A stretch of 64,000 nucleotides of DNA. Source: an uncultured Chloroflexia bacterium. Lineage in GTDB: Bacteria > Chloroflexota > Limnocylindria > QHBO01. A program made the translations under genes and the position numbers. The DNA lies in NCBI GenBank assembly GCA_963837425.1, contig CAWINH010000002.1:355175-419174 (forward strand), given 5' to 3'. Under the pieces are notes generated by a model. It made no database searches, was not told where the DNA came from, and saw only the letters and a list, made by a program, of their open reading frames with translations. Positions 1 through 29,036 of the stretch are shown here, piece after piece (the stretch's first letter is position 1; each line of letters starts with the position of its first letter).

Positions 1-239
1 GCATCGCAACCCGTCGTACGACCCTATTGAGAACCCCGACTTCCAGATCCGCACCGGCGAGATCCAGTACATCGTCTGGGACTCCTTCTCGGCGCTCCGT
101 TCAACGTTCTTCTCCGCGAGAATCCAGGACTATGCGAACCGCTACCACGGAAGGGTGGTGCACACCGAGTCGATCGTGGTGAAGACACCGAGCGCGAGCC
201 GGCGAGCATCCCGGTCATCGTCATCTACGAGGTGCGACC

Positions 240-1581
240 ATGAAGCGACTCGTGCTGGCCGCCTGCATCGGCGTCCTCTCGCTCTGGCTTCCGTCCGGGA
301 TCGTGCGGGCCGCCGGGCCGGCAACGCCGCTCGAGCACCTGGTCGTGCTCATGCAGGAGAACCACACGTTCGACAACTATTTCGGCACCTACCCCGGCGC
401 GGATGGGATACCGGCCGGGCGTCTGCATGCCGGTCGATCCGGCGGCCCCTGACGGCGAGTGCATCGCGCCGTTCCATCTCGGCGACCTGAACGTCACTCT
501 CGATGACCCGGACCACTCGAACACGACGAGCGTGCTCCAGTACGACGGGGCAAAGATGGACGGCTTCGTCTACGCCCTCGACCAGAAGAACCAGGACGGG
601 CGCCTGGCGATGATGTACTACGACGGCGGCCAGATGTACCCTACTACTGGAACCTCGCGGACCAGTACGTGCTGTTCGACCGCTGGTTCAGCTCGTTCGC
701 CGGCCCCAGCTTCACGAACCACGTGTACTGGGTGACCGGGTCGCGGACCCGACCCGAATCCCGCCATCCAGAACCTCGACGCCTTTCCCACCATCTTCGA
801 CCGGCTGGAGGCGGCCGGAGTCAGCTGGAAGTTCTACGTCGAGAACTACGAGCCGGGCCACCATCGGCCCCGCTACAGCACCCGGCCGATCGCCGGCCCA
901 GGTCGTCTGGATGCCGTTGCTCAGCTACGACCGTTTCGTCGACGATCCCCAGCTGAACAGCAAGATCGTGGACCTCGAGCAGTACTACACGACCGCCAAG
1001 GGCAGCCTCCCGGCGGTCGCCTACATCGCCCGGCCGGGGCCAGCGAGCATCCGCCGGGAAGCATCCGGTCCGGCCAGCGCCTCGTCCGCCGCTCGTCCAG
1101 GCTGATGCGGATCAGCCCGTGGGACTCCTCGGCGCCTCTGGTCACTACGACGACTGGGGAGGCTGGTACGACCACGTGACGCCCCCGCAGGTCGACGCCT
1201 ACGGGTACGGGTTCCGGGTCCCCGCCTTCCTGGTCGGCCCATACGTCCGGCGTGGGTACATCGACAGCCTCACGCTCGATTACACCTCCGCGCTGAAGTT
1301 CATCGAGGTCAACTGGGGCTCGCGCCGCTCCGGTCGCGAGCCGCAGGGCCGAAGCCTTCCTCGACGCCTTCGACTTCACGAAGCCGCCCCGGACTCCGGT
1401 GATCTTCGGGATGGAGCGGACGACCGTCAGCCTTGGGCAGGGCGCGCACCGAGAGGTGATCTACGTGGCCTATGCGATCGCCGTGCTGCTCGTCATCGGC
1501 GCCATTGCGCTCGCCGCCATGCGCCGTCGCCGGGAGTCCGAGGTCGGATGGGAGGCGTCGCAGCAGGGCCCCGCCCCATGA
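240..1581 (+). pseudogene. Phospholipase C / acid-phosphatase family phosphoesterase (PF04185-like), secreted with C-terminal TM anchor, disrupted by at least 5 frameshifts
   Basis: Consecutive ORF pieces in different frames (240, 403, 669, 911, 1119, 1399) together rebuild a single phosphoesterase. Motifs seen: LVVLMQENHTFDNYFGTYPG, GYGFRVPAFLVGPYVRRGY and the C-terminal AFLDAFDFTKPP followed by a hydrophobic anchor. It ends with an ATGA overlap into the next gene. Confidence 0.6.
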
Positions 1582-3515
1582 GGCGCACGATGCTGGCGCG
1601 CGGCGTCGTGCTCGGTTGCCTGGCGATTGCGCTCTCCGTTGCCCACGCGCGCGGCGCCGGACCGATCCGGACCACGATTGCGATTCGCCCGCCGGCGGCG
1701 GTGGCCCTCGGCGACCATCCGGAGGTGGTCGTCGACGTGCGTGTGACCGGTGGCGGCCCGTTGCGCGGAGCGCCCGTCGAGCTGAGCATCGATGGCGTTC
1801 TGTACCGGCGCCATTCGACCGATGGCTCCGGCGCCCCGCCCTTCACCCTGCCGAACGACCTGGCGGCCGGCGACCATCGGATCAGCGCCTTCTATCCCGG
1901 TCTGTCGACGACCTACCTGGCTACCTCGACGACCGCGACCCTGGTGGTGAATCCGTTCGAGCTGACGATCGAGACCGTCCCGTCGCTGCCCGGCATGCCG
2001 TTCACCCTCGACGGGGAACGCTTCGTGGCGGGCGACGACGGGGTCGCGCGGACGACGGTGAGCGCCGTCGGTGAGCACGTGCTCGTCGCCCTCCCCGAGG
2101 AGTACCAGCCGGGCGCCCTGCGTGCCGAGTTCAGCCGCTGGAGCGCCGGCAACGAGTTCCGGCCCCAGCTGACGATCAGCGTGCCGAACGTCGGCCCGCT
2201 GCAGGCCGGGTTCGACGTCTTCAGGCCCATGTCTCAGAGCTTCATCGACCTGTCGGGAGCTGCGATCGACCCGGGACGCATCACCTCGATCACCCTCCGC
2301 AGCAGCCTCGGCGAGGTGCTGACCTACCCCGACGGGCAGTCGCGCTTCTTCAAGGCCAGCCGCACGGTCCACCGCTCATCGGGGCTCGAGCCCGTCGACG
2401 TGCGGTACAACGTCACCGACGTCGAGGTCGACGGCTCGAACGTCGTGAATGCCGGTCAGCAGCAGCTCTACGTGACGCCCGATGCGGTCTGGCGCATCAC
2501 GCTCCTCCTCTATTCAGCGCGAGTCCAACCCAAGGACGCGTTCTTCGGCTTCACCGCCGGAAGCTCGATCGAGGTGATCTACCCGAGCGGGAAGACGGAG
2601 GTGGTTCCGGCTGGGCCCGATGGCGTGGTGGTGGTCCAGGGCCTGGCTCGAGGCATCTACCGGATGACGGTCGCCGACGCGCCGGGCTGGGCGCCGGCAA
2701 TGCCGGTCGCACTGTCGAGGGATCAGCAGGTCGAGCTGCGGGTCGTGAGCTGGGTCGACATGGCCGCCGCCGCGCTCGTCGGCTTCGTCGTCCTGTTCGG
2801 ACTCCTGATCCGTGGCCGACCGCACCTCATTGGCAGCACGTCGAGGCCTGTCGGCGAGGTCACGGCCGAGCCGGGAATCCCGTGGCCGGCCGGCTCCCCG
2901 CTGGCGCTGGCCCGGGCCGAGATCGAGGTGGCTCCTCCCGAACCCATCGAACCGCAGCTGGCCGAGGCGGAGCCCGTGAGCCTGACGACCGGCCGGATGC
3001 GCCCGCTGCTCGCCAGCCTGCCCGTCGAGTCGACCCTGGAAGGAGCCGCCTCCCGGCGGGTCGGCGTGAGCGAGCGGCGGAGGGGTGAGGATCAGCGCGT
3101 CTTCGGCTCGAGTGCGCTGCTCGCGTCACCGTTGCGCGGGTACGACCTCGGGGCAACCGATCGGGCCACGGCGCCGCGCGCACCGGCCACGCTCCACCGG
3201 CGACTGACATCTGCCCGCAATGGGAGGGTCCTCAAGGTCCTCTCGACGGTGCCGGTGAGGCCGGTGAACGTGGTCGACCCGGCGCTTCGAATACCCACCA
3301 CCAGGGCCGCGATCCGTCACGATCCGGCACCGACCGTGCCGCGGGTCGAATCGGCCCATCCGGCGACCTCCGAGCCAGTCTGCGAGGCGTGCGGATCGCG
3401 CCTGTGGGGCGGGGCGCTGTACTGCGAGGAGTGCGGGCGCCGGGTTCGCGAGCCGCGGCGCGTAAGCATCGGCTCGCCGGCCCGCGAGGCCGGCCCGCGA
3501 GGCTCGCCGGCATGA
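1578..3515 (+). CDS. Membrane protein, paralog 1: signal peptide, Ig-like (Big-type) beta-rich ectodomain, single TM helix, disordered cytoplasmic tail, C-terminal zinc ribbon (CEACGSRLWGGALYCEECG)
   Basis: Intact 645 aa ORF starting at the ATG at 1578. The N-terminus (MRRTMLARGVVLGCLAIALSVAHA) is hydrophobic. The ectodomain has a repeated pattern V.V.V.GGGPL.G.PVELS.DG typical of bacterial Ig-like folds. A TM helix (MAAAALVGFVVLFGLLIRGRPHL) precedes a C-terminal CxxC-(11)-CxxC. It is about 70-75% identical to the next gene across the ectodomain and TM region. Confidence 0.6.
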   Translation: MRRTMLARGVVLGCLAIALSVAHARGAGPIRTTIAIRPPAAVALGDHPEVVVDVRVTGGGPLRGAPVELSIDGVLYRRHSTDGSGAPPFTLPNDLAAGDHRISAFYPGLSTTYLATSTTATLVVNPFELTIETVPSLPGMPFTLDGERFVAGDDGVARTTVSAVGEHVLVALPEEYQPGALRAEFSRWSAGNEFRPQLTISVPNVGPLQAGFDVFRPMSQSFIDLSGAAIDPGRITSITLRSSLGEVLTYPDGQSRFFKASRTVHRSSGLEPVDVRYNVTDVEVDGSNVVNAGQQQLYVTPDAVWRITLLLYSARVQPKDAFFGFTAGSSIEVIYPSGKTEVVPAGPDGVVVVQGLARGIYRMTVADAPGWAPAMPVALSRDQQVELRVVSWVDMAAAALVGFVVLFGLLIRGRPHLIGSTSRPVGEVTAEPGIPWPAGSPLALARAEIEVAPPEPIEPQLAEAEPVSLTTGRMRPLLASLPVESTLEGAASRRVGVSERRRGEDQRVFGSSALLASPLRGYDLGATDRATAPRAPATLHRRLTSARNGRVLKVLSTVPVRPVNVVDPALRIPTTRAAIRHDPAPTVPRVESAHPATSEPVCEACGSRLWGGALYCEECGRRVREPRRVSIGSPAREAGPRGSPA

Positions 3516-6043
3516 GCCGATCGGTCGTCGGATGGGGATTCGGGCTGGCGCTGCTGGTGGCGATCCTCTCGATCGGGCAGGCCCAGGCGGCGGGTCCCCT
3601 GGCCGTGGGGGTCAGCTTCCGGCCGGTCGACCCCGTCGTCATCGGCAACGGCGCGACCGTCGTCGTTGAGCTGCGCGTGGTGGGTGGCGGGCCGCTGTCG
3701 GGGGAGCCGGTGGAGCTCAGCCTCGACGGGACGTACTACCGTCGCTCACGCACCGATGCCTCGGGCGCCGTGGCGTTCCCCCTTCCCAAGGACCTTGTGG
3801 CCGGTACTCACCCGCTGACCGCGGTCTATCCGGGACGTTCGAACACCTACCTGCCCGCGAGCGCGAAAGCGTCGCTCGAGGTTACCCCGTACCAGCTCCA
3901 GGTCCAGACCGTGCCGTCGCTTCCCGGGATGGGGTTCACCCTGGATGGGACCCGCTTCGTGGCGGGTGCCGATGGGTACGCTCGCATCCCGGTGTCGACC
4001 CCCGGCGATCATGTGCTCATCGCGCTCGACACGGAGTATGCGGCCGCCGGCACCACGGCGCAGTTCTCGCGGTGGACAGTCAACAACGAATACAGCCGCC
4101 AGGTGACGGTGAGCGTCCCGAAGGTCGGCCCGGTGCAGGCCGGATTCGACGTCTCCCGACCGGCCAGCCAGGTGTTCGTGGATCCGAGCGGGGGGCTCGT
4201 CAAAGCCGATCGCATCACGTCGTTCACCCTGCGGAGCAGCCTTGGGCAGGTGCTGACCTATCCCGACGGCCGGGAACGCGTCTACAAGGCCAGCCGCGTC
4301 GTGCGCCGCTCATCGGGCCTCGAATCGGTTGACGTCCGCTACAACGTCACCGATGTCGAGGTCGACGGTTCGAACGTTGTGAACGCCGGCCAGCAGCACT
4401 TCTACACCGCCCCCGACGCGGTCTGGCGGATCTCCCTGCTTCTCTACTCCGCGCGCATCCAGGCCAAGGATGCCCTGTTCGGTTTCACCGCCGGCAAGGC
4501 GGTGGAGATGATCTACCCGAGCGGGAAGTCGCAGATCGTCGACGTCGGGTCCAACGGCGAGGTCTACATTCCCTGGCTCGCGCGCGGGATCTACCGCGTG
4601 GCCGTGGCGGATGCCCCCGGCTGGGCCCCGTCCATGCCGGTCGCCCTCTCCCGCGACCAGGAGGTGGAACTTCGTGTCATCAGCTACCTCGACATGGGCG
4701 TCGCGGGGGCCGTGGCCCTGATCGTCATCTTCGGGCTCCTGCATCGCGGACGGCCGCACCTCATCCGCGACGCGGCGCGGGCGGTAGGTGCGGGTGTGTC
4801 CGGGCTGCGGCTGCCGCTCCCGGGAGCGGCTCACGCGCCCGCAGCCATGCGGCGGCCCGCGGAAGGGGAGCCGACGGCGAATGCCAGCCCACCACCCGTC
4901 GTCGCCAGCCCCCCACCCGTCTTGGCCAGCGCACCGAGCACTGCCACCCAGCAGCCGCAGCTCGCCCAGCAGGCAACCGAGGGCAGCGCGAAGGTCGCGC
5001 CGATCCTGGCAACGATTGCCAGGCGGTCGGACATCGACGCACTCGACCGCGTGGCTCTCGCCCACCATCGGACGATGGGCGTCAACGTTCCGGTGAGCCC
5101 CGACCTGATCGAGCTGGCGCCCTCGCTCTTCGGTCCGCAGGTCGACGAGCCCCCGCCCCCGACGAAGCCGAGGCCGACACCTCTTCCTCCGTTGCGGGCA
5201 CCCGAGAGCGCGGTCGGGGACGCAGCGCCGGCTCCGACCCCCGCAGCGCCGGCTCCGACCCCCGCAACGCCGGCTCCGGCCGAGCTCGCCGCGGAAGCGG
5301 CACCAGGCGTTGCCGATGAGTCGCTGCCATCGAAGCCCGCCCGGACCAGGCGGGCTGCAAAGCGTCCCACCACGAAGAAGGTGACGGAACCGTCGAAGGC
5401 CGTCAGGGCGAAGCGATCAACGGCCAACGCGGCACCCGCGGACGCCACGAGCGCCCCGAAGCGCGCGGCTGCGCCGAAGGCTGCCAAGACGAAGGTTCCC
5501 CGAAAGAAGGCAACCGCCACGACACCGGCGCGACGAGCGCCGGCGAAGGCCGCGAGTCGGCAGACGTCCGCATCGGCGAAGCGGACGGTCCGGAAGAAGG
5601 CGGCTCCAAGCGCTCCGCGCCGCGATTCGAGCCGGACGGTATCGGCGACTCGTGCGAGCTCGACCACGCCGGCATCCGGCACCCGGGAGACTGGCGGGAC
5701 CCGGCCGTCACGCACCCCCCGCAAGCCAGCGGCGGGGCGCTCGAGCCAGGCGGCGGTGTCGGGGGCCGCCGGGCAGCCGGTGGATGAACCGACCGAGACC
5801 CCGCCCAAGGGCGCGGAGATGCAGGCATGCCGCAACTGCGGGCTCGAGCTGTGGGCGGGCGCATCGTATTGCCGCCGCTGCGGCGAGCCGACGATTGGCG
5901 CCGGCGCCACGGACGATGCGCCGAGCGCTGGCCCACGCAGTCCGAAGCGGACGGCGACGCCTCGCGGTCGCAGTCGCCGCCGGCCGGCCACCCCCTCGGC
6001 GGGTTCCACTCGGGCCCGCGGCTCACGGCGAGGCAAGGGATGA
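3512..6043 (+). CDS. Membrane protein, paralog 2: same architecture as 1578-3515 but with a ~360 aa Lys/Ala/Pro-rich histone-H1/HU-tail-like cytoplasmic region before the C-terminal zinc ribbon (CRNCGLELWAGASYCRRCG)
   Basis: Intact 843 aa ORF whose ATG at 3512 overlaps the upstream stop (ATGA). It shows high identity to paralog 1, for example ITSFTLRSSLGQVLTYPDG and VDVRYNVTDVEVDGSNVVNAGQQ. The tail contains KRAAAPKAAKTKVPRKKATATTPARRAPAKAA-type repeats and an APAPTP tandem repeat at the DNA level (5215-5285). Confidence 0.6.
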   Translation: MSRSVVGWGFGLALLVAILSIGQAQAAGPLAVGVSFRPVDPVVIGNGATVVVELRVVGGGPLSGEPVELSLDGTYYRRSRTDASGAVAFPLPKDLVAGTHPLTAVYPGRSNTYLPASAKASLEVTPYQLQVQTVPSLPGMGFTLDGTRFVAGADGYARIPVSTPGDHVLIALDTEYAAAGTTAQFSRWTVNNEYSRQVTVSVPKVGPVQAGFDVSRPASQVFVDPSGGLVKADRITSFTLRSSLGQVLTYPDGRERVYKASRVVRRSSGLESVDVRYNVTDVEVDGSNVVNAGQQHFYTAPDAVWRISLLLYSARIQAKDALFGFTAGKAVEMIYPSGKSQIVDVGSNGEVYIPWLARGIYRVAVADAPGWAPSMPVALSRDQEVELRVISYLDMGVAGAVALIVIFGLLHRGRPHLIRDAARAVGAGVSGLRLPLPGAAHAPAAMRRPAEGEPTANASPPPVVASPPPVLASAPSTATQQPQLAQQATEGSAKVAPILATIARRSDIDALDRVALAHHRTMGVNVPVSPDLIELAPSLFGPQVDEPPPPTKPRPTPLPPLRAPESAVGDAAPAPTPAAPAPTPATPAPAELAAEAAPGVADESLPSKPARTRRAAKRPTTKKVTEPSKAVRAKRSTANAAPADATSAPKRAAAPKAAKTKVPRKKATATTPARRAPAKAASRQTSASAKRTVRKKAAPSAPRRDSSRTVSATRASSTTPASGTRETGGTRPSRTPRKPAAGRSSQAAVSGAAGQPVDEPTETPPKGAEMQACRNCGLELWAGASYCRRCGEPTIGAGATDDAPSAGPRSPKRTATPRGRSRRRPATPSAGSTRARGSRRGKG

Positions 6044-6387
6044 GGGCCGTGAAGCGTCTGACGCTGATCTGGTGCGCGGCCATTCTTGTGACGGCCGGCC
6101 TGGCGGGACCACCCCCGGCGGCTGCGGCAAGCCCCGGAGCCTCGCCGATCCCGGTCCTCGCCTATTACTACATCTGGTATGACCCATCGTCGTGGGATCG
6201 GGCCAAGTCCGACTATCCGATGCTCGGCCGCTACTCGAGCGACGATATCGAGGTCATGCGCCAGCACATTCGCTGGGCCAAGGATGCGGGGATCTCCGGA
6301 TTCATCGTCAGCTGGAAGAGCACCACGACCCTGAACCGCCGCTTGGAACAGCTGATCCAGGTCGCGGATCCGAATCGTTCGAGCTAG
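6040..6387 (+). pseudogene. Truncated secreted glycoside-hydrolase-like protein: signal peptide plus the first ~90 aa of a TIM-barrel-type domain
   Basis: ATGA overlap with the upstream gene. The sequence MRAVKRLTLIWCAAILVTAGLAG looks like a signal peptide. It is followed by YYYIWYDPSSWDRAKSDYPMLGRYSSDDIEVMRQHIRWAKDAGISGFIVSW, which resembles the N-terminus of GH99-like / GHL-type hydrolases; the family assignment is uncertain. The ORF stops after 115 aa exactly where the GC content drops. Confidence 0.35.
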
Positions 6388-8989
6388 CAATCAGTTATCC
6401 AGGGGCTGCAAAACCAACAACGGCTCCGCTCGACGCGACGCACATCGCCACAACCTCGACCAGTTCATCGGGGATTACGCCACCGATGCAGCATTCAACA
6501 TATCAGCAGGCCACTCGTCCTCTCATCAAGGACCTCGGGAGTACAGCGTCGCCGAACATGAGGAGCATCATCAATTCGACGAAGCACGACGCCTGCGGCT
6601 CCGAGCAGCGAATTCGCCCCGGCATCGTGACACTGCTTTGCAGCGACTGAAGTAACGAAGGATCACCGTTTGGCGGGCATCGTCGACGGCGATGCGTACT
6701 ACGTATTCGGTGGAACCCGACCGCGTAGCCCGAATACCCCGCCCAAGCTCGCCCGGAGTGCGAGATACAATGAAGGAACCAGCGGATCTCGATCGCCCCG
6801 GCGGGGCCGGGCTTCGATGCCGTCTGATCGGGGCACAACGGTCGTTGAATCGGAAGGACAGCGACACCCTGCGACGGGAGCTCGATGCGGCCTACGGTTC
6901 CTGGCCGGACACGGTGGGGGTCATCGAGCTCAACGGGTTCAGAAGGAACGGCGAGGTCGAGCCGAGCCTGAACTACAGCAACAACTAGCTCTGGGTCCCT
7001 CGCTGACATGATGGACAACGGGCACCAGAGGATACCCGATCTCGACTCGCCGCAGCCGACCTGGGTACCGTCTCGACGCCCGGGAACGACATGGTCGAGC
7101 CGGATCCTCACGCTCTGCCTCATCGTCGGGCTCCCCTCATCAGGAAGTAAGCATTCATCATTCACAGCAGACAAAGTAAGGCCGATTTCGGCTCGGCGTA
7201 CAGCGGCTGATCCCCGCCGAACGCGAGACAGACCGTCAAGAACAAGATAAAGAGGTGAAGGATGACGACCGCGCTGGAGGAGTCGGACTCATCCAGATTT
7301 CTTCACTAGGCGGCGGCTCCGCGCCTGCCGCTCTGCGTGAAGACGAAGCCGCGTGTTCGGCTTCACTCGCCCTCGACAGATCAGCGATAGTATCCCGACG
7401 TCGCGCTCGAGAAGATCAGCTCCTCGGCCGATGGAACAAGCTGAAACCAACCGCCCCAACGGCATCGACGATGGGGACTCAAGGTCCTGATGCACGTCGC
7501 ACATCGAACACACGAACCGCCGGATCGGGTCAAGAAGCTCGGGGGGAGTTCCGCTGGACGGATCAGGAACCAGCATCGCGCGCCGTCCAGCGCGAGCTGG
7601 CGACGACCCGACCCAGCACCCAGGCGGTGGTGATGGCGATTCGGAATGCGCACGAATACCGATCCAGATCGTGCTGCCCGGTGGCGAGGATGCGCCTCGG
7701 TGCCGCTGACCGTCGAGAGCGGGGCCGAGGCACGATGAGGGACCGTCGCGTGGCCGGGGGGTCCGGCCGGCCGGCCGTGCCGTGATCGAACAGTCGTTGC
7801 TGACCGGGGGCCTGGTCGCCGCCGGCCCCTTGCCGTCGCATTGCTCCTCGCCACCCTGCATGCCGATGACCCGGCGGACGGGCGTCGAGACCCGGGCTCC
7901 GGAGCCGGGGGAGCGGCATCATCTCGGGCCCCGCGTCGCCGAGCGCATCGCCGGTAGACCGCCGCCCGCCTCAGCGAGCCCAACCGCCTCGAGCACCGTC
8001 TCGGCTCTGCCCTCCCCACGGCACGACGCCTCCCGCCCGCCCGTCCCCAGTTAGGCACGCCCACCCGGCACAGCCCAGCCCGCCGGCCGAAGCCACAGGC
8101 CGACCACAGGCCGACGGCCGCGCTGCCGAGGCCGATCACAGCGACGTCCCGGCGCATTTTGCAATTCCGCGCCGCGTTTCTACTAGCATGGTTTCCCGAG
8201 GCATGGAAGCAGCAGGAAATGATTCCTTCCGCTCACTATCGACCATCGATCAGTTTCTGCGATCGAGAATCGAGCCGCGTGGTGAGAGAAACCCAGAGTC
8301 GCCGCGATCCGGTACCGGAAGGATCAGGTCGGATGCTCGCGTCGTCGTAGGAACACGGCAACCAGTTCAACGACGGGATGACCGAGCTCCTCAGCGCCAC
8401 GGCGCCGGACGACGTTCCGGTGGACGGTCTGCTGCGGGGGCAAGAGCCCGGGCGACCATCGGCCTCCCGGTCCACGAGCGAAGCCTGCGCGTACCTGCGC
8501 CCGATACAGCTGCGGATCAGCGCCGGGCTTCTTCCGAGTCGACGTCGGGTGGTGGACTTCATCTACGCCGACGGCGCGGACCGCTGCGGCATCCATGGAG
8601 AATCGCTCGTCAGCGGCCGACGTTGGCATCGGGGCCTACATCGTCCTCAGGTCTTTAGCGGCTTTCGCTCCTGCGGCAACCGAGCCCGCTGGCTCGCACC
8701 AGTGCAGCCCCTGCGGTCTAAATCGTTGAGCGCAGGCCAGCTCAGCTACGTCATGGCTTCCCAGGCTTTCTGGAAGGCGGACAGAGGCCACCGCGCGGCT
8801 CCCGGCGCGACGTCGCGCGATCGTCGCCGGAGCGGGCGTCGGCATGGTCGGCAGCGGACCCCGTTCCAGCTCGTCACGACGTTCAACGATGGGCGAAGGG
8901 ACGGGCGTCGAGAGCGCGACCGACTCGGCGTCGTCGTCGGGATTTCCGACAGTACCTCGACATCCTCCACCGACGCGAGTGCAGATACG

Positions 8990-10405
8990 TAGGCCGCGTC
9001 CCGGCTCAGCCTGGAGCGGGACCGTGCTGACCTGGCCGTCGGGCGTGTCACGCACCTCGATGCCCATGGCCGCCAGCTCGCCGCGGAGCGCATCCGAGGT
9101 GGCGTAGTCGCGGGCCTCCCGGGCGGCTGCGCGGCGTTCGAGGAGCTCCGCGGCGCCCCGGGCAGCTCGGTCGGCGCCGCCTCGGCCGGGGTCGAGCCCA
9201 GGCCCAGCACGCGGTCGAAGTCCAGCAGCAGCGCGCGGCGCTGGGCCGGCCGAGGTCGTCGGCGCCCGCCACGGCGTGCGCGACCGCCAGGGCGGCCGGC
9301 AGGCCCAGGTCGTCGCTGACCGCGTCGACGAAGCGGGCGCGGTAGGAGGCCAACGGCTCGGCGGCGAGGTCAACACGGCTGGCCGATCCGGCCTCGGCGG
9401 CCGCCCGACGCAGGCGCCGCAGGCCGGCGCTGGCGGCCTGCATGGCGTGTTCGGTGAAGTCGAGCTTGGACCGATAGTGGGCAGTGAGCGCCAGGTAGCG
9501 GAAGGCGAGCGGCTCGAAGCCCTTGGCGGGCAGGTCGGTGACGCGGATGATGTTCCCCGCCGACTTGGCCATCTTGGCCTCCGCCATGGTCAGGAACTCG
9601 CCGTGCATCCAGATGCTGACCACCGGATGACCCAGCACGCCCTCGCTCTGGGCGATCTCGTCCTCGTGATGGGGGAACTTGAGGTCGATCCCGCCGGTGT
9701 GGATATCGAACTGCTCGCCGAGGTACTTGACGCTCATGGCGGAGCACTCGATGTGCCAGCCCGGGAAGCCCTCGCCCCACGGCGACGCCCACTTCATGAC
9801 GCGACCCGGCTCGGCGGCCTTCCACAGCGCGAAGTCCTCCGGGTCGCGCTTGTCGGTCTCGACCTCGACGCGATGGCCGGCCCTCATCTGCTCCAGGCGC
9901 TGCCCGGACAGCTTCCCGTAGCCGGTGGGAAGGCGCTGACGTCGTAGTAGACGTTGCCCGCCACCTCGTAGGCCAGCCCGTTCTCCAGCAGGGCTGCCGT
10001 CATCTCGATCATCTCCCCGATGTGCTCGGTCGCGCGCGGCATGACGTCGGCGGGCGCCATGTTGAGCAGCCGCTCGTCGGTCAGCCAGGCATCGGTGTAG
10101 AACTCGGCGATCTGGGCCGGGGTCTTGCCCTCGACTTCGGCGGCCATCAGGATCGGGTCTTCGCCGGTCTCGCGCATGTGGCCCACGTCGGTGATGTTCT
10201 TCACGTAGCGGACCTCGTAGCCGAGGTACTCGAGACGCGCGCAGCAGGTCCCCGAACAGATAGGTCCGCAGGTTGCCGATGTGCGCGTAGCGGTAGACGG
10301 TGCTGCCGCAGGTATAGATCCCGACGCGTCCGGCGAGACGGGGACCAGCGGCTCGACCCGGCGCGTGAGCGAGTTGTAGAGGCGAATGGGAGGCAGGGGC
10401 GCCAT
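8990..10405 (-). pseudogene. cysS: Cysteine--tRNA ligase (CysRS) disrupted by at least 3 frameshifts (pseudogene of a paralog, or assembly indels)
   Basis: The N-terminus MAPLPPIRLYNSLTRRVEPL and the segment LEYLGYEVRYVKNITDVGHMRE sit in one frame. YTCGSTVYRYAHIGNLRTYLFGDLL, HIECS and the KMAKSAGN (KMSKS-like) motif sit in another frame. The C-terminus, ending ...LRGELAAMGIEVRDTPDGQVSTV, is in a third frame. The 3' end coordinate is approximate. Confidence 0.6.
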
Positions 10406-12977: not shown

Positions 12978-13019
12978 GGCCCTGGCCGGCCTCCCGCCGT
13001 ACTCGGCCCCGTTCCCCGG

Positions 13020-13400
13020 CTCATTAGGCCCGTTGATGCATCCGCGGGGGAAGCCCGGTTCCGGCCGCGTTTCGTCCCCCTCCCCCACCCCGGCCCATAG
13101 GGGGTCCCTCAACCCGGCCCGTTCCCCGCGCTCCCCTCCCGGCCCCATATGCGGGGATCAGGCCTGCGCCAGGGGGGGTCCCGGGGGACCCCCCCCCCGC
13201 CCCCCGGCGGCCCTCCCTCCCCCGCCCCGCCCACCCGGGCCGGGCCCCGCCCCCGCGCACCCCTCCCCCCCCCCCCCGCGGGGCGGGTGGCCGGGGGGCG
13301 GGGAGCCAGCCGGGCCGGACAACGCCCCGGGCCTGGCCCGGGAAGGGGCGGGCCCTGACCAGGGCCCCGGGAGACGAAAGTCGGCGCGCGACGTCAGCCC
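13020..13400. repeat. C-rich/G-rich low-complexity block with homopolymer runs up to 13 nt and degenerate CCGGCCC-N-GGGG units; candidate G-quadruplex/i-motif tract or assembly artefact
   Basis: Direct reading of the sequence shows cccccccccc, ccccccccccccc, gggggggg and repeated ccggccc...gggg units. The block sits in the ~440 bp convergent intergenic space between the NUDIX gene and the fabF paralog. Confidence 0.5.
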
Positions 13401-13419
13401 GGATGACGCGGGTTCGCGC

Positions 13420-14670
13420 TCAGACCGGGCGGCGGAAGACGGCCACCGCGTTCTGGCCGCCGAAGCCGAAGCCGTTGATGATTGCCACCCCCACGTCCGC
13501 TCTGCGCGCCAGGTTGGGGACGTAGTCCAGGTCGCAGGCGGGGTCGGGCGTCTCGTAGTTGATCGTGGGCGGGATCAGTCCGTCGCGGATGGCCAGCACC
13601 GCGGCCAGGGCGGACATCGCGCCGGCCGCGCCCAGGGTGTGCCCGATCATGCTCTTGTTGCTGCTCACCGCCAGCCTGGGCGCGTGGTCGGCGAAGGCCG
13701 CGTGGATGGCCCTGGTCTCGGTGGCGTCATTGAGCGGGGTGCTGGTGCCGTGGGCGACCACGTAGTCCACTTCCTCCGGCTCGACGCCCGCGTCGCGCAG
13801 GGCGCGCTGCATGGCGCGGGCCGCGCCGTCACCCGGAGGGGTCGGGTGCGCTGATGTGGAACGCGTCGCCGGTCAGCGCACCGCCGGCGATCTCGGCGAT
13901 GACGGTGGCGCCGCGCGATGGGCGTGCTCGGCCGACTCGACCACCAGGATGCCGGCCGCCTCGCCGAAGACGAAGCCGTCGCGTCTGGCATCGAACGGCC
14001 GCGAGGCATGCTCCGGCTCGTCGTTGCGCTTGGAGAGGGCGCCCATGTTGGCGAGCGCGGCGAACGCCACCGGCAGGATCGCGCTCTCGGTGCCCCCGGC
14101 AACCACCGCGTCGGCGTCTCCGTGCTCGATCATGCGCTGCGCCTCCACGAACGCCTGCACCCCCGAGGCACAGGCCGCCACGCTGGTGACCACCGGGCCG
14201 CGGAGCCGGTTCTGGATGCTGATCTGGCAGGCGGCCATGGAGGGGGAGAGCATGGGCACCATGAACGGGCTGACCCGCGTCGGTCCCTGCTCGAGATAGA
14301 CGCGCTCCCCGAGGGCCACCTCGCCGATCCCGCCGCCGCCGGTGTTGACGACCACGGCGATGTCATCCCGGTTGGCGTCGCTGATCTCGAGGCCGGAATC
14401 ATCGATCGCCTGGCGGGCGGCGGCCACGGCCAGCTGGCTGAATCGGCTCATGCGGCGCGCGGCCTTGAAGTCCATCCAGTCGCGTGGCTCGAAGCCCTTC
14501 ACCTCCGCCGCGATCTGGACCTCCTCGCCGGAAGGGTCGTAGGCGGTGATGCGGGCCACGCCGCTGACGCCACCGGTCAGGTTGGACCAGTAGCTGGCCA
14601 CGTCATTGCCGATGGGGCTGATGACGCCCATGCCGGTGACGACGGCTCGACGGGCGGGGTCGCGGCTCAT
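13420..14670 (-). pseudogene. fabF: 3-oxoacyl-ACP synthase II paralog (KAS II), interrupted by two closely spaced compensating frameshifts with an internal stop
   Basis: The N-terminal 265 aa (13873-14670) and C-terminal 130 aa (13420-13812) are in the same frame. Between them, about 75 bp (13813-13915) is in the wrong frames; the correct peptide [28 protein letters not shown] is readable in a third frame. Confidence 0.6.
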
Positions 14671-15963: not shown

Positions 15964-16934
15964 GATGGGAGCCAGGCGGCGAGACCCCCGGGGGCGTCGG
16001 TGGCGTGGGCGCTGGTGTCGGGCGCGATGCGGCGGATCAGGCCGGTGAGCACCCGGCCGGGCCCCACCTCCACGAAGTCGGTGACCCCGTCGGCGGCCAT
16101 GCGGCGCACGGTGTCGGTCCACTGCACGCCGTGCACCAGGTGCTCGGTCAGCTCCTTGCGCAGCCCGTCGGCCGTCTGGATCATGCTGGCATGCACGTTC
16201 CCGAGCATGGGCACGCGCGGCTCGCGGAACGGGACCTTGGCCAGGATCTGGCCGAACTCGTCGCGAGCGCGTCGCATGAGCGGGGAGTGGCTCGCCACGC
16301 TGACGGTGAGGCGCACCGCCTTGCGGGCGCCAATGGTCTTGCTCATCTCGAGCGCGAAGACGAGGGCAGGGATGACGCCGGAGAGCACGATCTGTCCCGG
16401 CGCGTTGGCATTCGCGACCCCGATCTCGCCGTGCTGCCGCGCGTGCTCGACGACCTCGTCAACCTGTTCGTCGGAGAGGCCGATGACGGCCCCCATGCCG
16501 CCGTCGATGCCGCGCTCCTGCATGATCCGTCCCCGCTCCCGGACCAGGTGCAGCGCCTCCTCGAAGTCGATGGCATCGGCGGCAACCGCAGCGGCGTACT
16601 GGCCTGCCGAGTGGCCGGCCAGGACCCGGGGAGCCAGCTCCAGGCCGGCGGCGGCTGCCTGGGCGCGCAGCGCCTCGAGATAGGCGACGCTGGTGGCCAG
16701 GATGGCGGGCTGGGCGTTGACCGTGAGGTCCAGGTCCTCGGCCGGTCCCTCGAGGATCATCCGGGTCAGCGGAAAGCCCAGCGCCCGATCCGCGCGCTCC
16801 ATCACCGCGGCCGCCTCCGGCGAGTGCTCGAGCAGGGCGGCGCCCATCCCCACGTACTGCGAGCCCTGGCCGGGAAAGACAAAGGCATGCACGCGGGGGG
16901 GTGCGATGGACTGCGGGTCGGGTGGGTTCGTCAT
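15960..16934 (-). CDS. fabD: Malonyl-CoA:ACP transacylase
   Basis: FVFPGQGSQYVGMG and GHSAGQYAA motifs are present. The ATG overlaps the stop of the upstream M20 gene (ATGA). Confidence 0.8.
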   Translation of the reverse strand: MTNPPDPQSIAPPRVHAFVFPGQGSQYVGMGAALLEHSPEAAAVMERADRALGFPLTRMILEGPAEDLDLTVNAQPAILATSVAYLEALRAQAAAAGLELAPRVLAGHSAGQYAAAVAADAIDFEEALHLVRERGRIMQERGIDGGMGAVIGLSDEQVDEVVEHARQHGEIGVANANAPGQIVLSGVIPALVFALEMSKTIGARKAVRLTVSVASHSPLMRRARDEFGQILAKVPFREPRVPMLGNVHASMIQTADGLRKELTEHLVHGVQWTDTVRRMAADGVTDFVEVGPGRVLTGLIRRIAPDTSAHATDAPGGLAAWLPS

Positions 16935-18371
16935 GCTGAAACGTCAGTGTCTCGTATCCCGGGGAGTATAGCCGTCACCGCCGACCGCTCCCACTCGGGT
17001 GGCGGTCGATCAGGTGCAGAACGCTCCACGACCCGCTGCAGCACGGGCAGGCCAAAGGCCAGGGCGCTCACCGGCAGGCGCTCGTCGTTGGCGTGGAAGA
17101 GCGAGAGGAACGGCACCTGCGGGTCCAGGCGGAGAGGCATGAAGCCGTAGGTCGGGATGCCCAGCAGGCCCAGTGCCTTGGCGTCGGTGCCCGGCGTGAT
17201 CATCATCGGCAGCGGGGTCGCCTCGGGATCGGCTGCGGACAGGACCTCCCGCATGATCGTCACGATCTCGGCCGCGGCGGGCCATTCCACAGGGGGCATG
17301 GTCATCACCGCATCCACCGTCACCTCCGGCCCGGCCACCGCCTGCAGGTGCTCCAGGAAGGCCGCCTGGTCCGTTCCCGGCAGGGTCCGCACGTCGATCT
17401 CCGCTTCGCCGCTGCCGGGCACCACGTTCATCTTGGCGCCGGCGCGGATGACGTTGGGGGTGACCGTGTCGCGCAGCATGGCGTCGAGGGAGCGCCGCAG
17501 GACCGGGTCGGCCACGGCGTCGGCGAGCGCTGTCCGTGCCGCGGCCTCGTCACCCGGGCGGCCAGCTCCGCCACGTTGCCCAGGCCCAGTCCATCGAAGA
17601 ACCCCCGGACGACGGGGATCACCCGGGCCGGTCGCGGGTCGCCCGCCAGGCGGGTGATGGCCGTGGCCAGCTTGATCGCGGCGTTGTCCGGCGAAGGCAT
17701 CGAGCCGTGCGACGGCGTCCCGCTGGCCCGCACCCGGGTCCAGACGATCCCCTTCTCGGCCACCTGGATAGCGTATGACCGCCTTCCGTTAAGGGTGATC
17801 GAGTAGCCGCCGACCTCGTTGAGGGCGGCGGCGGCCGGCTGACCGGCGGCATCGGCGAAGAGATCGGGCCGCTGCTGCACCCAGTGCAGCGCCCCGTGCT
17901 GGCCGCCCGCCTCCTCGTCCGCCAGGGCGGCGAAGATGACCTCCCGTCGTCGCGCTGCGCCGGATCGCTGGAGCGCCACCATGACCTCCAGCTCCATGGC
18001 CACCATCTCCTTCATGTCGACCGCGCCGCGGCCCCAGACGGCGCCGTCCAGCAGCTCCGCGCCGAACGGGTCGCGCGTCCGCCGTCCGCCTCCACGGGGA
18101 CCACGTCCACGTGGGAGAGCAGGATGACCGGCGGCGCGGGGTTCGGCACGGTGGCGGGCAGCCGCGCGAAGCAGGAACCGCGGCCCGGGGCCGTCTCCAG
18201 CACCTCCGCCGGGATGCCTGCCGCGGTGAGCACCTCCGCGCAGTAGGCGGCGGCCGCGTCTCGCCGCCGGTCGAGTCGCGGCCGGCGGCGGTGTCGGTGA
18301 TCCCGGCGGGTTGACGCTCGGGATGCGGATAGCGCGCGGAGGTGATCCACGCAGGCGTCGAGAGCGGTCAT
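16931..18371 (-). pseudogene. M20 family metallopeptidase (ArgE/DapE-like), disrupted by at least 4 frameshifts
   Basis: The N-terminal pieces MTALDACVDHLRAL, IRIPSVNPPG and LLSHVDVVPV alternate between two frames. The GRGAVDMKEM motif and the dimerisation-domain C-terminus (16931-17515) are in further frames. Confidence 0.55.
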
Positions 18372-25763: not shown

Positions 25764-27212
25764 ATGGCAACCGAGGTCCTCGCGCCCCACGTCCCCGTCT
25801 ATCTCGCCGGCGAGTTCGTGGAGGCCGGGCCGTCCGCTCGAGGTGCGCAACCCGGCGACCGGGAGAGCTCGATCGCGACCACCTTCCAGGCCGGTCCCGC
25901 GGAGCTGGAGCGCGCAACGATCGCGGCAGTCGAGGCGTTCGCGAAGACCCGCCGCCTGGCGAGCTACCAGCGCCGCGACGCGCTGGCGCATGTGGCGCAG
26001 CGGATCAGCGAGGAGGCGGACGAGCTGGCGGAGCTGCTGACCCGCGAGTCGGGCAAGCCGATCCGCGATGCGCGGGGCGAGGTGGCGCGCGCGGCGCTCA
26101 CCTTCCGCACCGCGGGCGAGGAGGCGCTGCGCATCACCGGGGAGTGGATGCCGCTCGACTGGAACGCGGCCAATCGCGGCCGATCGGGGATCGTGCGCCG
26201 CTACCCGATCGGGCCGGTGGCGGGGATCAGCCCCTTCAACTTCCCGCTCAACCTCGCCGCGCACAAGGTCGCGCCGGCGATCGCGGCCGGGCTGCAGCAT
26301 CGTCCTCAAGCCCCCGTCGGTCGACCCGCTGGTCATGCTGCGCGTGGCGCGCTACATCGACGAGACGGACCTCCCGGCCGGCGCGGTCAGCATCCTGCCC
26401 ATGGATCGGCCCACCGGGGACGCCATGGTCCGCGACGAGCGGTTCAAGCTGCTCAGCTTCACAGGCTCCCCATCGGTCGGCTGGAAGATGAAGGCCGATG
26501 CCGGCAAGAAGAAGGTCGTCCTCGAGCTGGGTGGCAACGCCGGTGCGATCGTGGACGAGACCGCGGACCTCGACTGGGCGGTCAGCCGCCTGGTGTACGG
26601 CTCGTTCGCCTACGCCGGGCAGGTCTGCATCAGCGTCCAGCGCATCTACGTCGTGGCGTCGGTCTACGACGAGTTCGCGGCGCGCTTCGTGGCGAAGGTG
26701 CCGCGAGCTCAGGATCGGCGATCCGCTGGATCCGGCCACCGACCTGGGGCCGATGGTCGATGCCAAGGCGGTGGCGCGCACCCACGAATGGGTGACCGAG
26801 GCAATCGACGCCGGCGCCAGCGCCCTGGTCGGCGGCGAGCCGGGCGGCCTGGTCTATCCGCCAACCGTGCTCGTGGACGTGCCGAAGAGCGCGCAGGGTG
26901 TGCGGTGAGGAGGTCTTCGCGCCGGTGGTCAATCTCTTCGGGGTGCCGGACTTCGCGACGGCGATCGACGAGATCAACGACAGCCAGTTCGGGCTCCAGT
27001 GCGGGGTCTTCACGAACGACATGGAGCGGACGCTCACCGCGCACGACGAGCTGGAGGTTGGCGGGATCATCGTCAACGACATCCCCACCTGGCGGATCGA
27101 CCCCATGCCCTACGGCGGGGTGAAGGACTCGGGCCTTGGTCGCGAGGGGCTCCGCTGGTCGATCGAGGACATGACCGAGCCGCGGCTCCTCGCCTTCGCC
27201 CGGCCGCTGTGA
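25764..27212 (+). pseudogene. NAD(P)-dependent aldehyde dehydrogenase, at least 3 frameshifts
   Basis: Pieces in frames 25764, 26068, 26498 and 26898 make a full ALDH: FNFPLNLAAHKVAPAIAAG, ELGGNAGAIVDETADLDWAV, QVCISVQRIYV, GLQCGVFTNDMERT. Confidence 0.6.
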
Positions 27213-28377: not shown

Positions 28378-28620
28378 ATGCAGGTCCGCATCCGCTTCTT
28401 CGCCACCCTCCGCGAGGCGGCAGCCGATCGCACCACGCTGACGCTGGCCGATGGCGCGTCGATCGAGGACGCGTGGGCGGAGCTCGCGTCTCAGTGGCCG
28501 GCGCTCGCGCCGCACCGCGAGTGGGTGCGGGCCGCGCTGAACGGGGCGTACACGACCTTCGACGCGCGGGTCGCCGATGGCGATGAGGTCGCCTTCCTGC
28601 CGCCGGTCAGCGGCGGCGGC
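28378..28620 (+). CDS. moaD: MoaD/ThiS-type sulfur carrier ending in GlyGly
   Basis: MQVRIRFFATLREAAADRTTLTLADGASIEDAWAEL...DGDEVAFLPPVSGG followed by a GGCGGCGGCGGC run. Confidence 0.55.
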
Positions 28621-29036
28621 GGCCCTCGGCCTGACCGATGCGCCGATCGACGTGGCGGCCCTCGAGCGTGAGCTCGCGGACACGGCTCACGGCGCCGTCG
28701 TCACCTTCGTGGGACGAGCGCGCAGGACCGCGGACGACGGGCGCGCGGTGATCGAGCTCGAGTACGAGGCCTACCACGAGATGGCGGAGTCGGTGCTGCG
28801 CCAGATTGCGCGCAGAGGCCCGCGAACGCTGGCCAGGGGTGGCGGTGGCCGTCGTGCACCGCGTCGGTGTTGTGCCGCTCGGAGAGGCGGCGGTGGCCAT
28901 CGTCACCGCCGCGCCGCATCGTGCGGCGGCCTACGAGGCGAATCGCCACGTCATCGAGGCGATCAAGGATCGTCTGCCGATCTGGAAGCGCGAGCGCTTC
29001 GCCGACGGGAGCGAATGGAAGCGCCCCGGCGCCTAG
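28600..29036 (+). pseudogene. moaE: Molybdopterin synthase catalytic subunit MoaE with one frameshift; possibly fused to MoaD (MoaX-like) through the GGC repeat
   Basis: AVVTFVGRARRTADDGRAVIELEYEAYHEMAE is in one frame, and ERWPGVAVAVVHRVGVVPLGEAAVAIVTAAPHRAAAYEANRHVIEAIKDRLPIWKRE in another (shift near 28815). Confidence 0.5.

Follow-up and report, generated by a model that had tools for sequence, protein, structure and literature searches.

Two described systems come closest to the gene cluster studied here, namely GtrA/GtrB/GtrC of O-antigen modification and the mycobacterial PpgS-Rv3632-Rv3779. The downstream part of our cluster lies in a 64,000-nucleotide (nt) stretch of DNA, hereafter the window, from an uncultured Chloroflexia bacterium (NCBI GenBank assembly GCA_963837425.1, contig CAWINH010000002.1, positions 355,175 to 419,174, forward strand). 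Like these systems, the cluster starts with a GT2 glycosyltransferase, a GtrA-domain membrane protein and a GT-C (PMT_2) glycosyltransferase. Unlike them, it always adds a secreted phosphoesterase, a membrane protein with an immunoglobulin (Ig)-type stalk and a GH99-like enzyme, and its GtrA protein is 533 amino acids (aa) long, with an additional domain that shows weak similarity to HprK-related kinase A. With regard to the DNA record itself, the closest comparison is with contigs of metagenome-assembled genomes (MAGs) built from Nanopore reads only, as in the Microflora Danica catalogue (PMC12313526), which the window resembles in its 1-2 nt frameshifts in conserved genes, its indel-dense patches and its apparent switch between co-occurring genomes.

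In the window, the genes for the phosphoesterase and the GH99-like glycosidase enclose a pair of paralogous stalk-protein genes, and a sequence-only reading had seen here an operon decaying at both ends around a centre kept by selection. As a biological feature, this pattern is most likely not real. Comparison with two near-identical intact contigs, L001 (JGI) and L002 (ENA contig_68514), and with a syntenic outgroup, L003, leads us to regard the damage in the outer genes as probably the product of a poor or chimeric long-read consensus and not of biology. Two related, co-occurring genomes would have been joined here, the first supplying an L001/L002-type operon as far as about 9000 and the second, a ~84%-identical species, the sequence from cysS onward, and two stretches of the operon would hold poorly resolved, error-laden consensus, with 5 kb of clean sequence between them. 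The reading builds on direct observations: the mosaic, the boundaries of the damaged blocks, the lack of reciprocal change, a bias between the strands and frameshifted essential genes. The features concerned are as follows, with the strand in brackets.

1..243 (+): last 243 nt of a GT-C glycosyltransferase gene of the PMT_2 family, aligning with the PMT gene of L002 (5138-6721)
240..1581 (+): phosphoesterase gene, PF04185, frame-broken; assigned from Pfam fragments and an intact 450-aa orthologue
789..1375: damage block 1, with sharp boundaries
1578..3515 (+): paralog 1, 645 aa, intact
3512..6043 (+): paralog 2, 843 aa, intact
6040..7250 (+): GH99-like gene, equal to L002 up to 6367 and scrambled beyond; its open reading frame (ORF) ends at 6387
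6368..~9000: damage block 2
7431..7738 (+): GerE/LuxR-type regulator gene (99 aa in L001/L002), present as a remnant
7918..8996 (+): second GH99-like gene (GH99b; 346 aa in L002), likewise a remnant
8970..9011: lineage switch, placed by outgroup-polarised changes and the identity profile
9011..10405 (-): cysS of the second lineage, split over at least 3 frames, with substitutions that fit purifying selection

The sequence-only reading had proposed to look in relatives for intact versions of the flanking genes, and the relatives do carry them. In L001 and L002 the phosphoesterase has 450 aa, paralog 1 has 641 aa (as called) and paralog 2 has 856 or 843 aa; a GH99/GH71-like protein of 399 aa and a GerE protein of 99 aa are also intact, and L002 reaches through GH99b. 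Upstream, both contigs encode GT2, the 533-aa GtrA-domain protein and a 527-aa PMT_2 glycosyltransferase. A third lineage (32,884-bp contig) likewise has intact phosphoesterase, paralog 1 and GH99 genes. A three-way alignment with the window gives L001 and L002 a mutual identity of 99-100% along its whole length; over 12.9 kb their overall identity is 98.6% with 8 gap openings, and neither holds a noise block like those of the window.

Against this intact background, the phosphoesterase gene of the window shows 13 indel events relative to its 450-aa orthologue, 11 of them frameshifting and 2 in frame, well above the at least five frameshifts claimed earlier. Consequently broken across frames, it matches PF04185 only in fragments of 14-61 bits and nowhere over full length in a single frame, while the intact L001 orthologue matches over its full length with 258.9 bits. 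At the other end, the GH99-like ORF (6040-6387) does end after 115 aa, as had been stated, because a 1-nt deletion at 6368 puts a TAG in frame at 6385. The gene itself, however, is not truncated there: its remainder is present up to 7250, scrambled by ~20% substitutions and 27 indels. Once corrected for frame, this remnant contains in-frame stops and has lost invariant residues, with E300G and E303R hitting both glutamates of the catalytic-type N-E-x-x-E motif, so that the copy is destroyed after residue 110; the surviving N-terminus scores 28.4 bits against Glyco_hydro_99, below the Pfam cut-off of 33. Both central paralogs are unbroken ORFs of 645 and 843 aa, in agreement with the earlier claim.

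Along the alignment with L002, the damage falls into two blocks. Positions 1-788 contain 9 differing alignment columns, 4 of them substitutions and 5 due to indels (4 events, of which the phosphoesterase gene has 3), and positions 1376-6368 contain 4 substitutions in 4,993 nt. In sharp contrast, 12-25% of the positions in the two blocks carry window-only changes, and an indel occurs every 40-60 nt. Block 1 has 12% substitutions with 10 deletions and 0 insertions; its spectrum is strand-symmetric and rich in G<->C changes, and the invariant phosphoesterase residues D252, S294 and D371 are replaced. Block 2 has 14-25% window-only substitutions and one indel per ~40 nt, and its GC content is lower (0.645; the window as a whole has ~70%). 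On the + strand, 25-26% of its purines are mutated versus 12-14% of its pyrimidines, with 117 G>A versus 26 C>T changes and an excess of A>G over T>C as well. Insertions outnumber deletions in this block by 36 to 16, and the indels lie mostly outside homopolymers.

Beyond block 2 the contig belongs to another lineage. Between cysS at 9011 and position 16556, identity with L002 is ~84% and indels are few; from 9011 onward third codon positions account for 65-78% of the differences, with G<->C as the predominant type of change, a pattern that on sequence criteria is ordinary between-species divergence. We polarised the differences with L003, separating changes on the L001/L002 branch (A-only) from window-only changes. 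The A-only/window-only counts are roughly symmetric in cysS (105/87), the NUDIX gene (41/39) and the ketoacyl synthase gene KS1 (112/74), whereas the window-only/A-only counts in block 2 are 118/16 and 121/19. At sites of block 2 where L002 differs from L003, 30-39% of the window changes match L003, which is the chance level. Since A-only changes are thus at chance level, block 2 is L001/L002-type sequence to which window-only changes have been added. A native, anciently diverged copy of the window's own species is rejected for block 2 by the outgroup polarisation, and a functional imported allele by the flat codon-position spread, the in-frame stops and the lost invariant residues. The contig therefore changes its lineage along its length, being of L001/L002 type to ~8970 and of another species from 9011, and the change occurs between the stop codons of the convergent genes GH99b and cysS. 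The metagenome contigs scanned contained no copy of a 23-mer taken from block 2, and a search of metagenomes with a cysS fragment returned relatives of at most 59% identity among the matches listed.

The quality of the record was then judged from conserved and essential genes elsewhere in the window, and these are frameshifted too. Between 9011 and 14670, cysS, a transporter gene (MFS/cyclic-nucleotide-monophosphate-binding) and KS1 are split, the last with a compensating pair of frameshifts at 13830 and 13915. Further split genes at 16943-18260, 25764-27200 and 28610-29033 encode an M20 peptidase (3 frames), an aldehyde dehydrogenase (4 frames, which cover the consecutive Pfam positions 16-154, 157-293, 296-362 and 366-459) and MoaE (2 frames). 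The fragment ORFs of the window and its 645-aa paralog 1 are gene calls on the deposited 682,090-bp NCBI/ENA contig, and the damage therefore sits in the public record. Similar faults occur in the 80 loci (L003-L082) that we obtained by scanning species-representative genomes, most of which are Nanopore-only Microflora Danica Chloroflexota MAGs. Frameshifts split 32 of the 190 cluster genes on Nanopore-only Microflora Danica MAG contigs versus 3 of 189 in other assemblies, a 10-fold excess, and indel-dense patches with up to 14 gap openings per 500 nt appear in the Nanopore contig pairs L045/L049 and L057/L059, with none in the short-read pair L039/L046. The catalogue was built by Flye --meta --nano-hq with one Medaka round, and its authors report Nanopore-associated errors in lower-coverage MAGs (PMC12313526). 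The window probably comes from a Nanopore-only MAG dataset of this kind. That assembly or polishing is the cause of the damage, and by which exact mechanism the artefact arose, we infer from these comparisons. They also indicate that the frameshifts are consensus errors and that the glycosidase gene enters a mis-assembled segment, which is the situation under which the sequence-only reading was to be given up.

Several observations weigh against an assembly artefact. Block 2 is dominated by substitutions, which outnumber indels ~5:1 and reach 14-25%, and it avoids homopolymers, which is unlike a textbook polished Nanopore consensus and worse than the ordinary residual error of Nanopore-only MAG contigs. 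The region from 35.8 to 47 kb holds long intact genes (pyrG, rho, obg and others), so that the errors, if errors they are, must be patchy. The lineage switch lies exactly between two convergent genes, where a selected natural recombinant would be expected to have it and where a random mis-join would fall only by luck. Of the 39 residue changes in block 1, 7 bring back the family consensus at positions with a derived residue common to L001, L002 and the third lineage; at the nucleotide level, 14 of the 18 informative changes agree with the outgroup. A simple error model does not account for block 1, which calls for a hybrid consensus or for a patch of a genuine foreign allele under relaxed constraint. 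The third lineage was rejected as the source of this block, as P0075 agrees with L001/L002 at the four reverting residues with the best support (S183, E187, M334 and G337) and over nearly the whole block.

The main rival is a real mosaic, which we consider unlikely. Here the species would recently have replaced most of its own degenerate operon with DNA of the L001/L002 lineage by homologous recombination, with the right crossover at the GH99b/cysS boundary; block 1 would be an unreplaced patch of the old pseudogene and the other frameshifts would be sequencing errors. A centre near-identical to L002 beside a flank of ~84% identity is the classic signature of recent transfer, and the switch exactly at a gene boundary fits it as well. 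So does block 1, with ancestral alleles absent from L001, L002 and P0075, a spectrum like that of natural divergence, and a window-only/A-only ratio of ~5:1, near the expectation for a pseudogene compared with a functional gene. Block 2 speaks against replacement: with A-only changes at chance level, it derives from L001/L002-type sequence and not from an old native copy, and it is 14-25% changed beside 5 kb with 4 changes. It is moreover strand-asymmetric and insertion-biased, and bacterial pseudogenes are usually deletion-biased. The same junctions were found on no independent contig in the metagenome scans.

Two further explanations invoke a burst of mutation. A real mosaic, with an envelope-glycan operon of at least 9 kb replaced up to GH99b/cysS, could have been followed by a strand-coordinated mutation shower at the junction, a combination that we hold to be very improbable. 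If true, it would represent recombination-associated clustered hypermutation in a bacterium, which killed a glycosidase, a regulator and a second glycosidase and spared the stalk-protein pair. Localised hypermutation of block 2, by single-strand damage or error-prone synthesis at a recombination junction just after inter-species transfer, has similarly little chance of being right. It would account for the position of block 2 next to the lineage switch, for its sharp boundary at 6368 and for the strand-coordinated changes (+ strand purines hit twice as often; G>A 117 vs C>T 26). Yet block 2 carries about 1 change per 5 nt, of every substitution type, with 3% indels, and to our knowledge such a density is far beyond any known clustered-mutation process. 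The excess of A>G over T>C does not fit deamination of one strand, and an independent copy was not found in the metagenome contigs scanned.

Decay of the operon in place, in the window's own lineage and with purifying selection keeping only the two paralogs, has next to no credibility left. In its favour, both operon ends are broken around intact central genes, and in the damaged genes substitutions show no preference for any codon position (23/21/32, 56/45/71, 25/20/15 and 58/68/50), so that frames are broken and codon-position bias is lost as in a pseudogene. Other marks of a pseudogene are missing. Divergence is not proportional to time, since 4 changes in 4,993 nt lie next door and A-only changes are at chance level in block 2; nor does block 2 show a symmetric spectrum and deletion bias, although block 1 is symmetric with deletions only. 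Because the unchanged 5 kb adjoins heavily altered, strand-asymmetric and insertion-rich blocks, time-proportional decay is ruled out. Synonymous sites lie beyond the protection of selection, and still only 4 of 4,993 nt differ beside stretches with 12-25% change; the intact sister lineage has almost no reciprocal change in block 2, and the flanking chromosome belongs to another species.

Nor do the comparisons support the related claim of selection now acting on the paralog pair alone. With 4 substitutions in 4,993 nt relative to L002, the centre is nearly identical in DNA, and its intactness is therefore uninformative on selection. Between L001 and L002 the ratio of synonymous to nonsynonymous changes is 6:1 in the phosphoesterase and 4:0 in GH99, compared with 9:4 and 14:15 in the paralogs. 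The flanking enzymes of the intact population are thus at least as constrained as the paralogs, and by these counts more so, which speaks against decay in place.

Mutation of the duplicated GH99 genes by a process like repeat-induced point mutation and mutagenesis by a diversity-generating retroelement were rejected for their wrong spectrum and the indels, uptake of deaminated DNA was discarded in view of the excess of A>G over T>C and of the indels, which it leaves unexplained, and gene conversion from GH99b is an unlikely source of the damage.

The consensus artefact that we favour has a practical side. Read literally, the locus would serve as an example of selective retention of two surface proteins in a dying operon, a conclusion that, as the comparisons show, the record does not allow. 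Mosaic stretches full of errors in long-read MAGs can pass very convincingly for pseudogenisation.

Apart from the question of damage, the analysis yielded a conserved gene cluster that includes an uncharacterised family of stalk-plus-zinc-ribbon membrane proteins. Searching the 80 loci with the L001 proteins by tblastn, we found PMT_2 in 76, the phosphoesterase in 76 and GH99 in 78, colinear with the stalk-protein gene. The order GT2, GtrA-domain protein, PMT_2, phosphoesterase, stalk protein, GH99-like enzyme is colinear in 76-78 of them, and the carriers include Chloroflexota, Thermoleophilia/Gaiellaceae, Acidimicrobiia, Blastococcus/Geodermatophilaceae and Truepera. Among the cultured carriers are Blastococcus sp. 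CT_GayMR19 and Geodermatophilaceae URHB0062 (loci L073 and L081). The Gtr-like trio (GT2, GtrA-type and GT-C) occurs in L001 and in 54-76 of the 80 loci, and the window shows the last 243 nt of its GT-C gene. A description of the six-gene cluster was not found in the literature searched, and this strongly conserved envelope-glycan cluster is apparently so far undescribed. Nearly all loci have one stalk-protein gene, and the tandem duplication is therefore specific to the lineage of L001, L002 and the window. In two database proteins (P0030 and P0064) the stalk protein is fused to a GH99-like domain; together with the colinearity, this supports the earlier proposal of an ancestral module of esterase, surface protein and glycosidase.

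From the predicted functions, the cluster may modify a surface glycan. A sugar would be loaded on a lipid phosphate inside the cell and then flipped, and the GT-C enzyme would transfer the flipped sugar outside the cell. The membrane-anchored phosphoesterase and the GH99-like enzyme could then act on the transferred product, with the stalk protein as a possible non-catalytic partner or scaffold.

The sequence-only reading was correct in that ATGA stop-start overlaps join the phosphoesterase, the paralogs and the glycosidase-like gene. All three (1578-1581, 3512-3515 and 6040-6043, + strand) are seen in the window, and a fourth at 240-243 overlaps the TGA of the upstream PMT_2 gene with the ATG of the phosphoesterase. 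L001 and L002 have the same 4-nt overlaps at PMT/phosphoesterase, paralog 1/paralog 2 and paralog 2/GH99; at their phosphoesterase/paralog 1 junction the called start sits 12 nt further downstream. With overlapping stop and start codons on one strand and a gene order kept in other genomes, the operon is, as judged from sequence, a single translationally coupled unit that starts upstream of the window, where the relatives have GT2, the GtrA-domain protein and the PMT_2 glycosyltransferase in this order before the phosphoesterase. The GT-C orthologue in L001 matches Pfam PMT_2/PMT, and compared with L001/L002 the end of this gene in the window lacks 1 nt at 189. GT2 is similar to enzymes that make polyprenyl- and dolichyl-phosphate sugars, such as PpgS, AglJ and dolichyl-phosphate hexose transferases.

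Both enzymes that flank the paralogs resemble known families. The phosphoesterase starts with a signal peptide and is anchored in the membrane by its C-terminus. Its orthologue, matching PF04185 over full length, resembles the family of phospholipases C (PLC) and AcpA, and its nearest solved structure is Francisella AcpA (2d1g, E=1e-36); unlike bacterial phospholipases C and AcpA, it is membrane-anchored at the C-terminus and scores far below the NCBIfam equivalog cut-offs for phosphatidylcholine-specific PLC and AcpA. The GH99-like orthologue in L001 matches Pfam Glyco_hydro_99 with 55 bits and solved GH99 enzymes with E=1e-10. The N-E-x-x-E motif, with both glutamates kept, is invariant in the GH99-like family and aligns with solved GH99 endo-alpha-mannosidases. 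The nearest known enzymes are the GH99 endo-alpha-1,2-mannosidases/mannanases, with BtGH99 and BxGH99 of Bacteroides (4acy, 4ad1, 5lyr). Unlike these, the orthologue is distant, also matches GH71, has no NCBIfam match, and carries a signal peptide and a C-terminal membrane anchor.

The two paralogs are 60% identical to each other over 448 aa, and their family has 65 matches in the protein database, all from uncultured sources. In each paralog, Pfam detects a Big_3_5 Ig-like domain along with a weak zinc ribbon; of the stalk-protein family it covers only the first domain. The AlphaFold model of paralog 1 predicts a signal peptide, four beta-sandwich domains (predicted local distance difference test >90) and a transmembrane helix at 392-413, followed by a disordered cytoplasmic tail and a confident zinc ribbon. 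Paralog 2, which encodes exactly the same protein as the L002 gene (P0004), has the same architecture with a longer basic tail rich in Lys, Ala and Pro. In the model, the best structural matches of the ectodomain are Gram-positive pilin and adhesin stalks (the B. anthracis TIE protein 6fwv, BcpA and RrgB), but the TM-scores are low (0.2), so that only the domain type would be common to both. Unlike those stalks, the paralogs have no sortase signal and are predicted to have one transmembrane helix, a disordered cytoplasmic tail and a zinc ribbon.

The basic repeats in the tail of paralog 2 (~5250-5900) are like the tails of histone H1 or HU, and a homologue of the paralogs, P0008, carries the JGI name 'DNA-binding protein HU-beta'. 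In this tail, L001 differs from L002 and the window by an indel of ~13 codons and many nonsynonymous changes. Upstream of GT2, L001 (1-4850) and L002 (1-3100) are structurally different: L001 encodes a 955-aa Big_7/Metallophos/CBM96 protein, and L002 instead a NosD/beta-helix protein and a short CBM96 ORF. The GT2 gene of L002 is split (182 + 77 aa). Elsewhere in the window, ~420 nt at 12980-13420, between the NUDIX and ketoacyl-synthase genes, are absent from L002 and have 81% GC with long C/G runs. Finally, the segment 57000-58080 is non-coding by the frame model and appears to hold repeated sequence and a tRNA-like segment.

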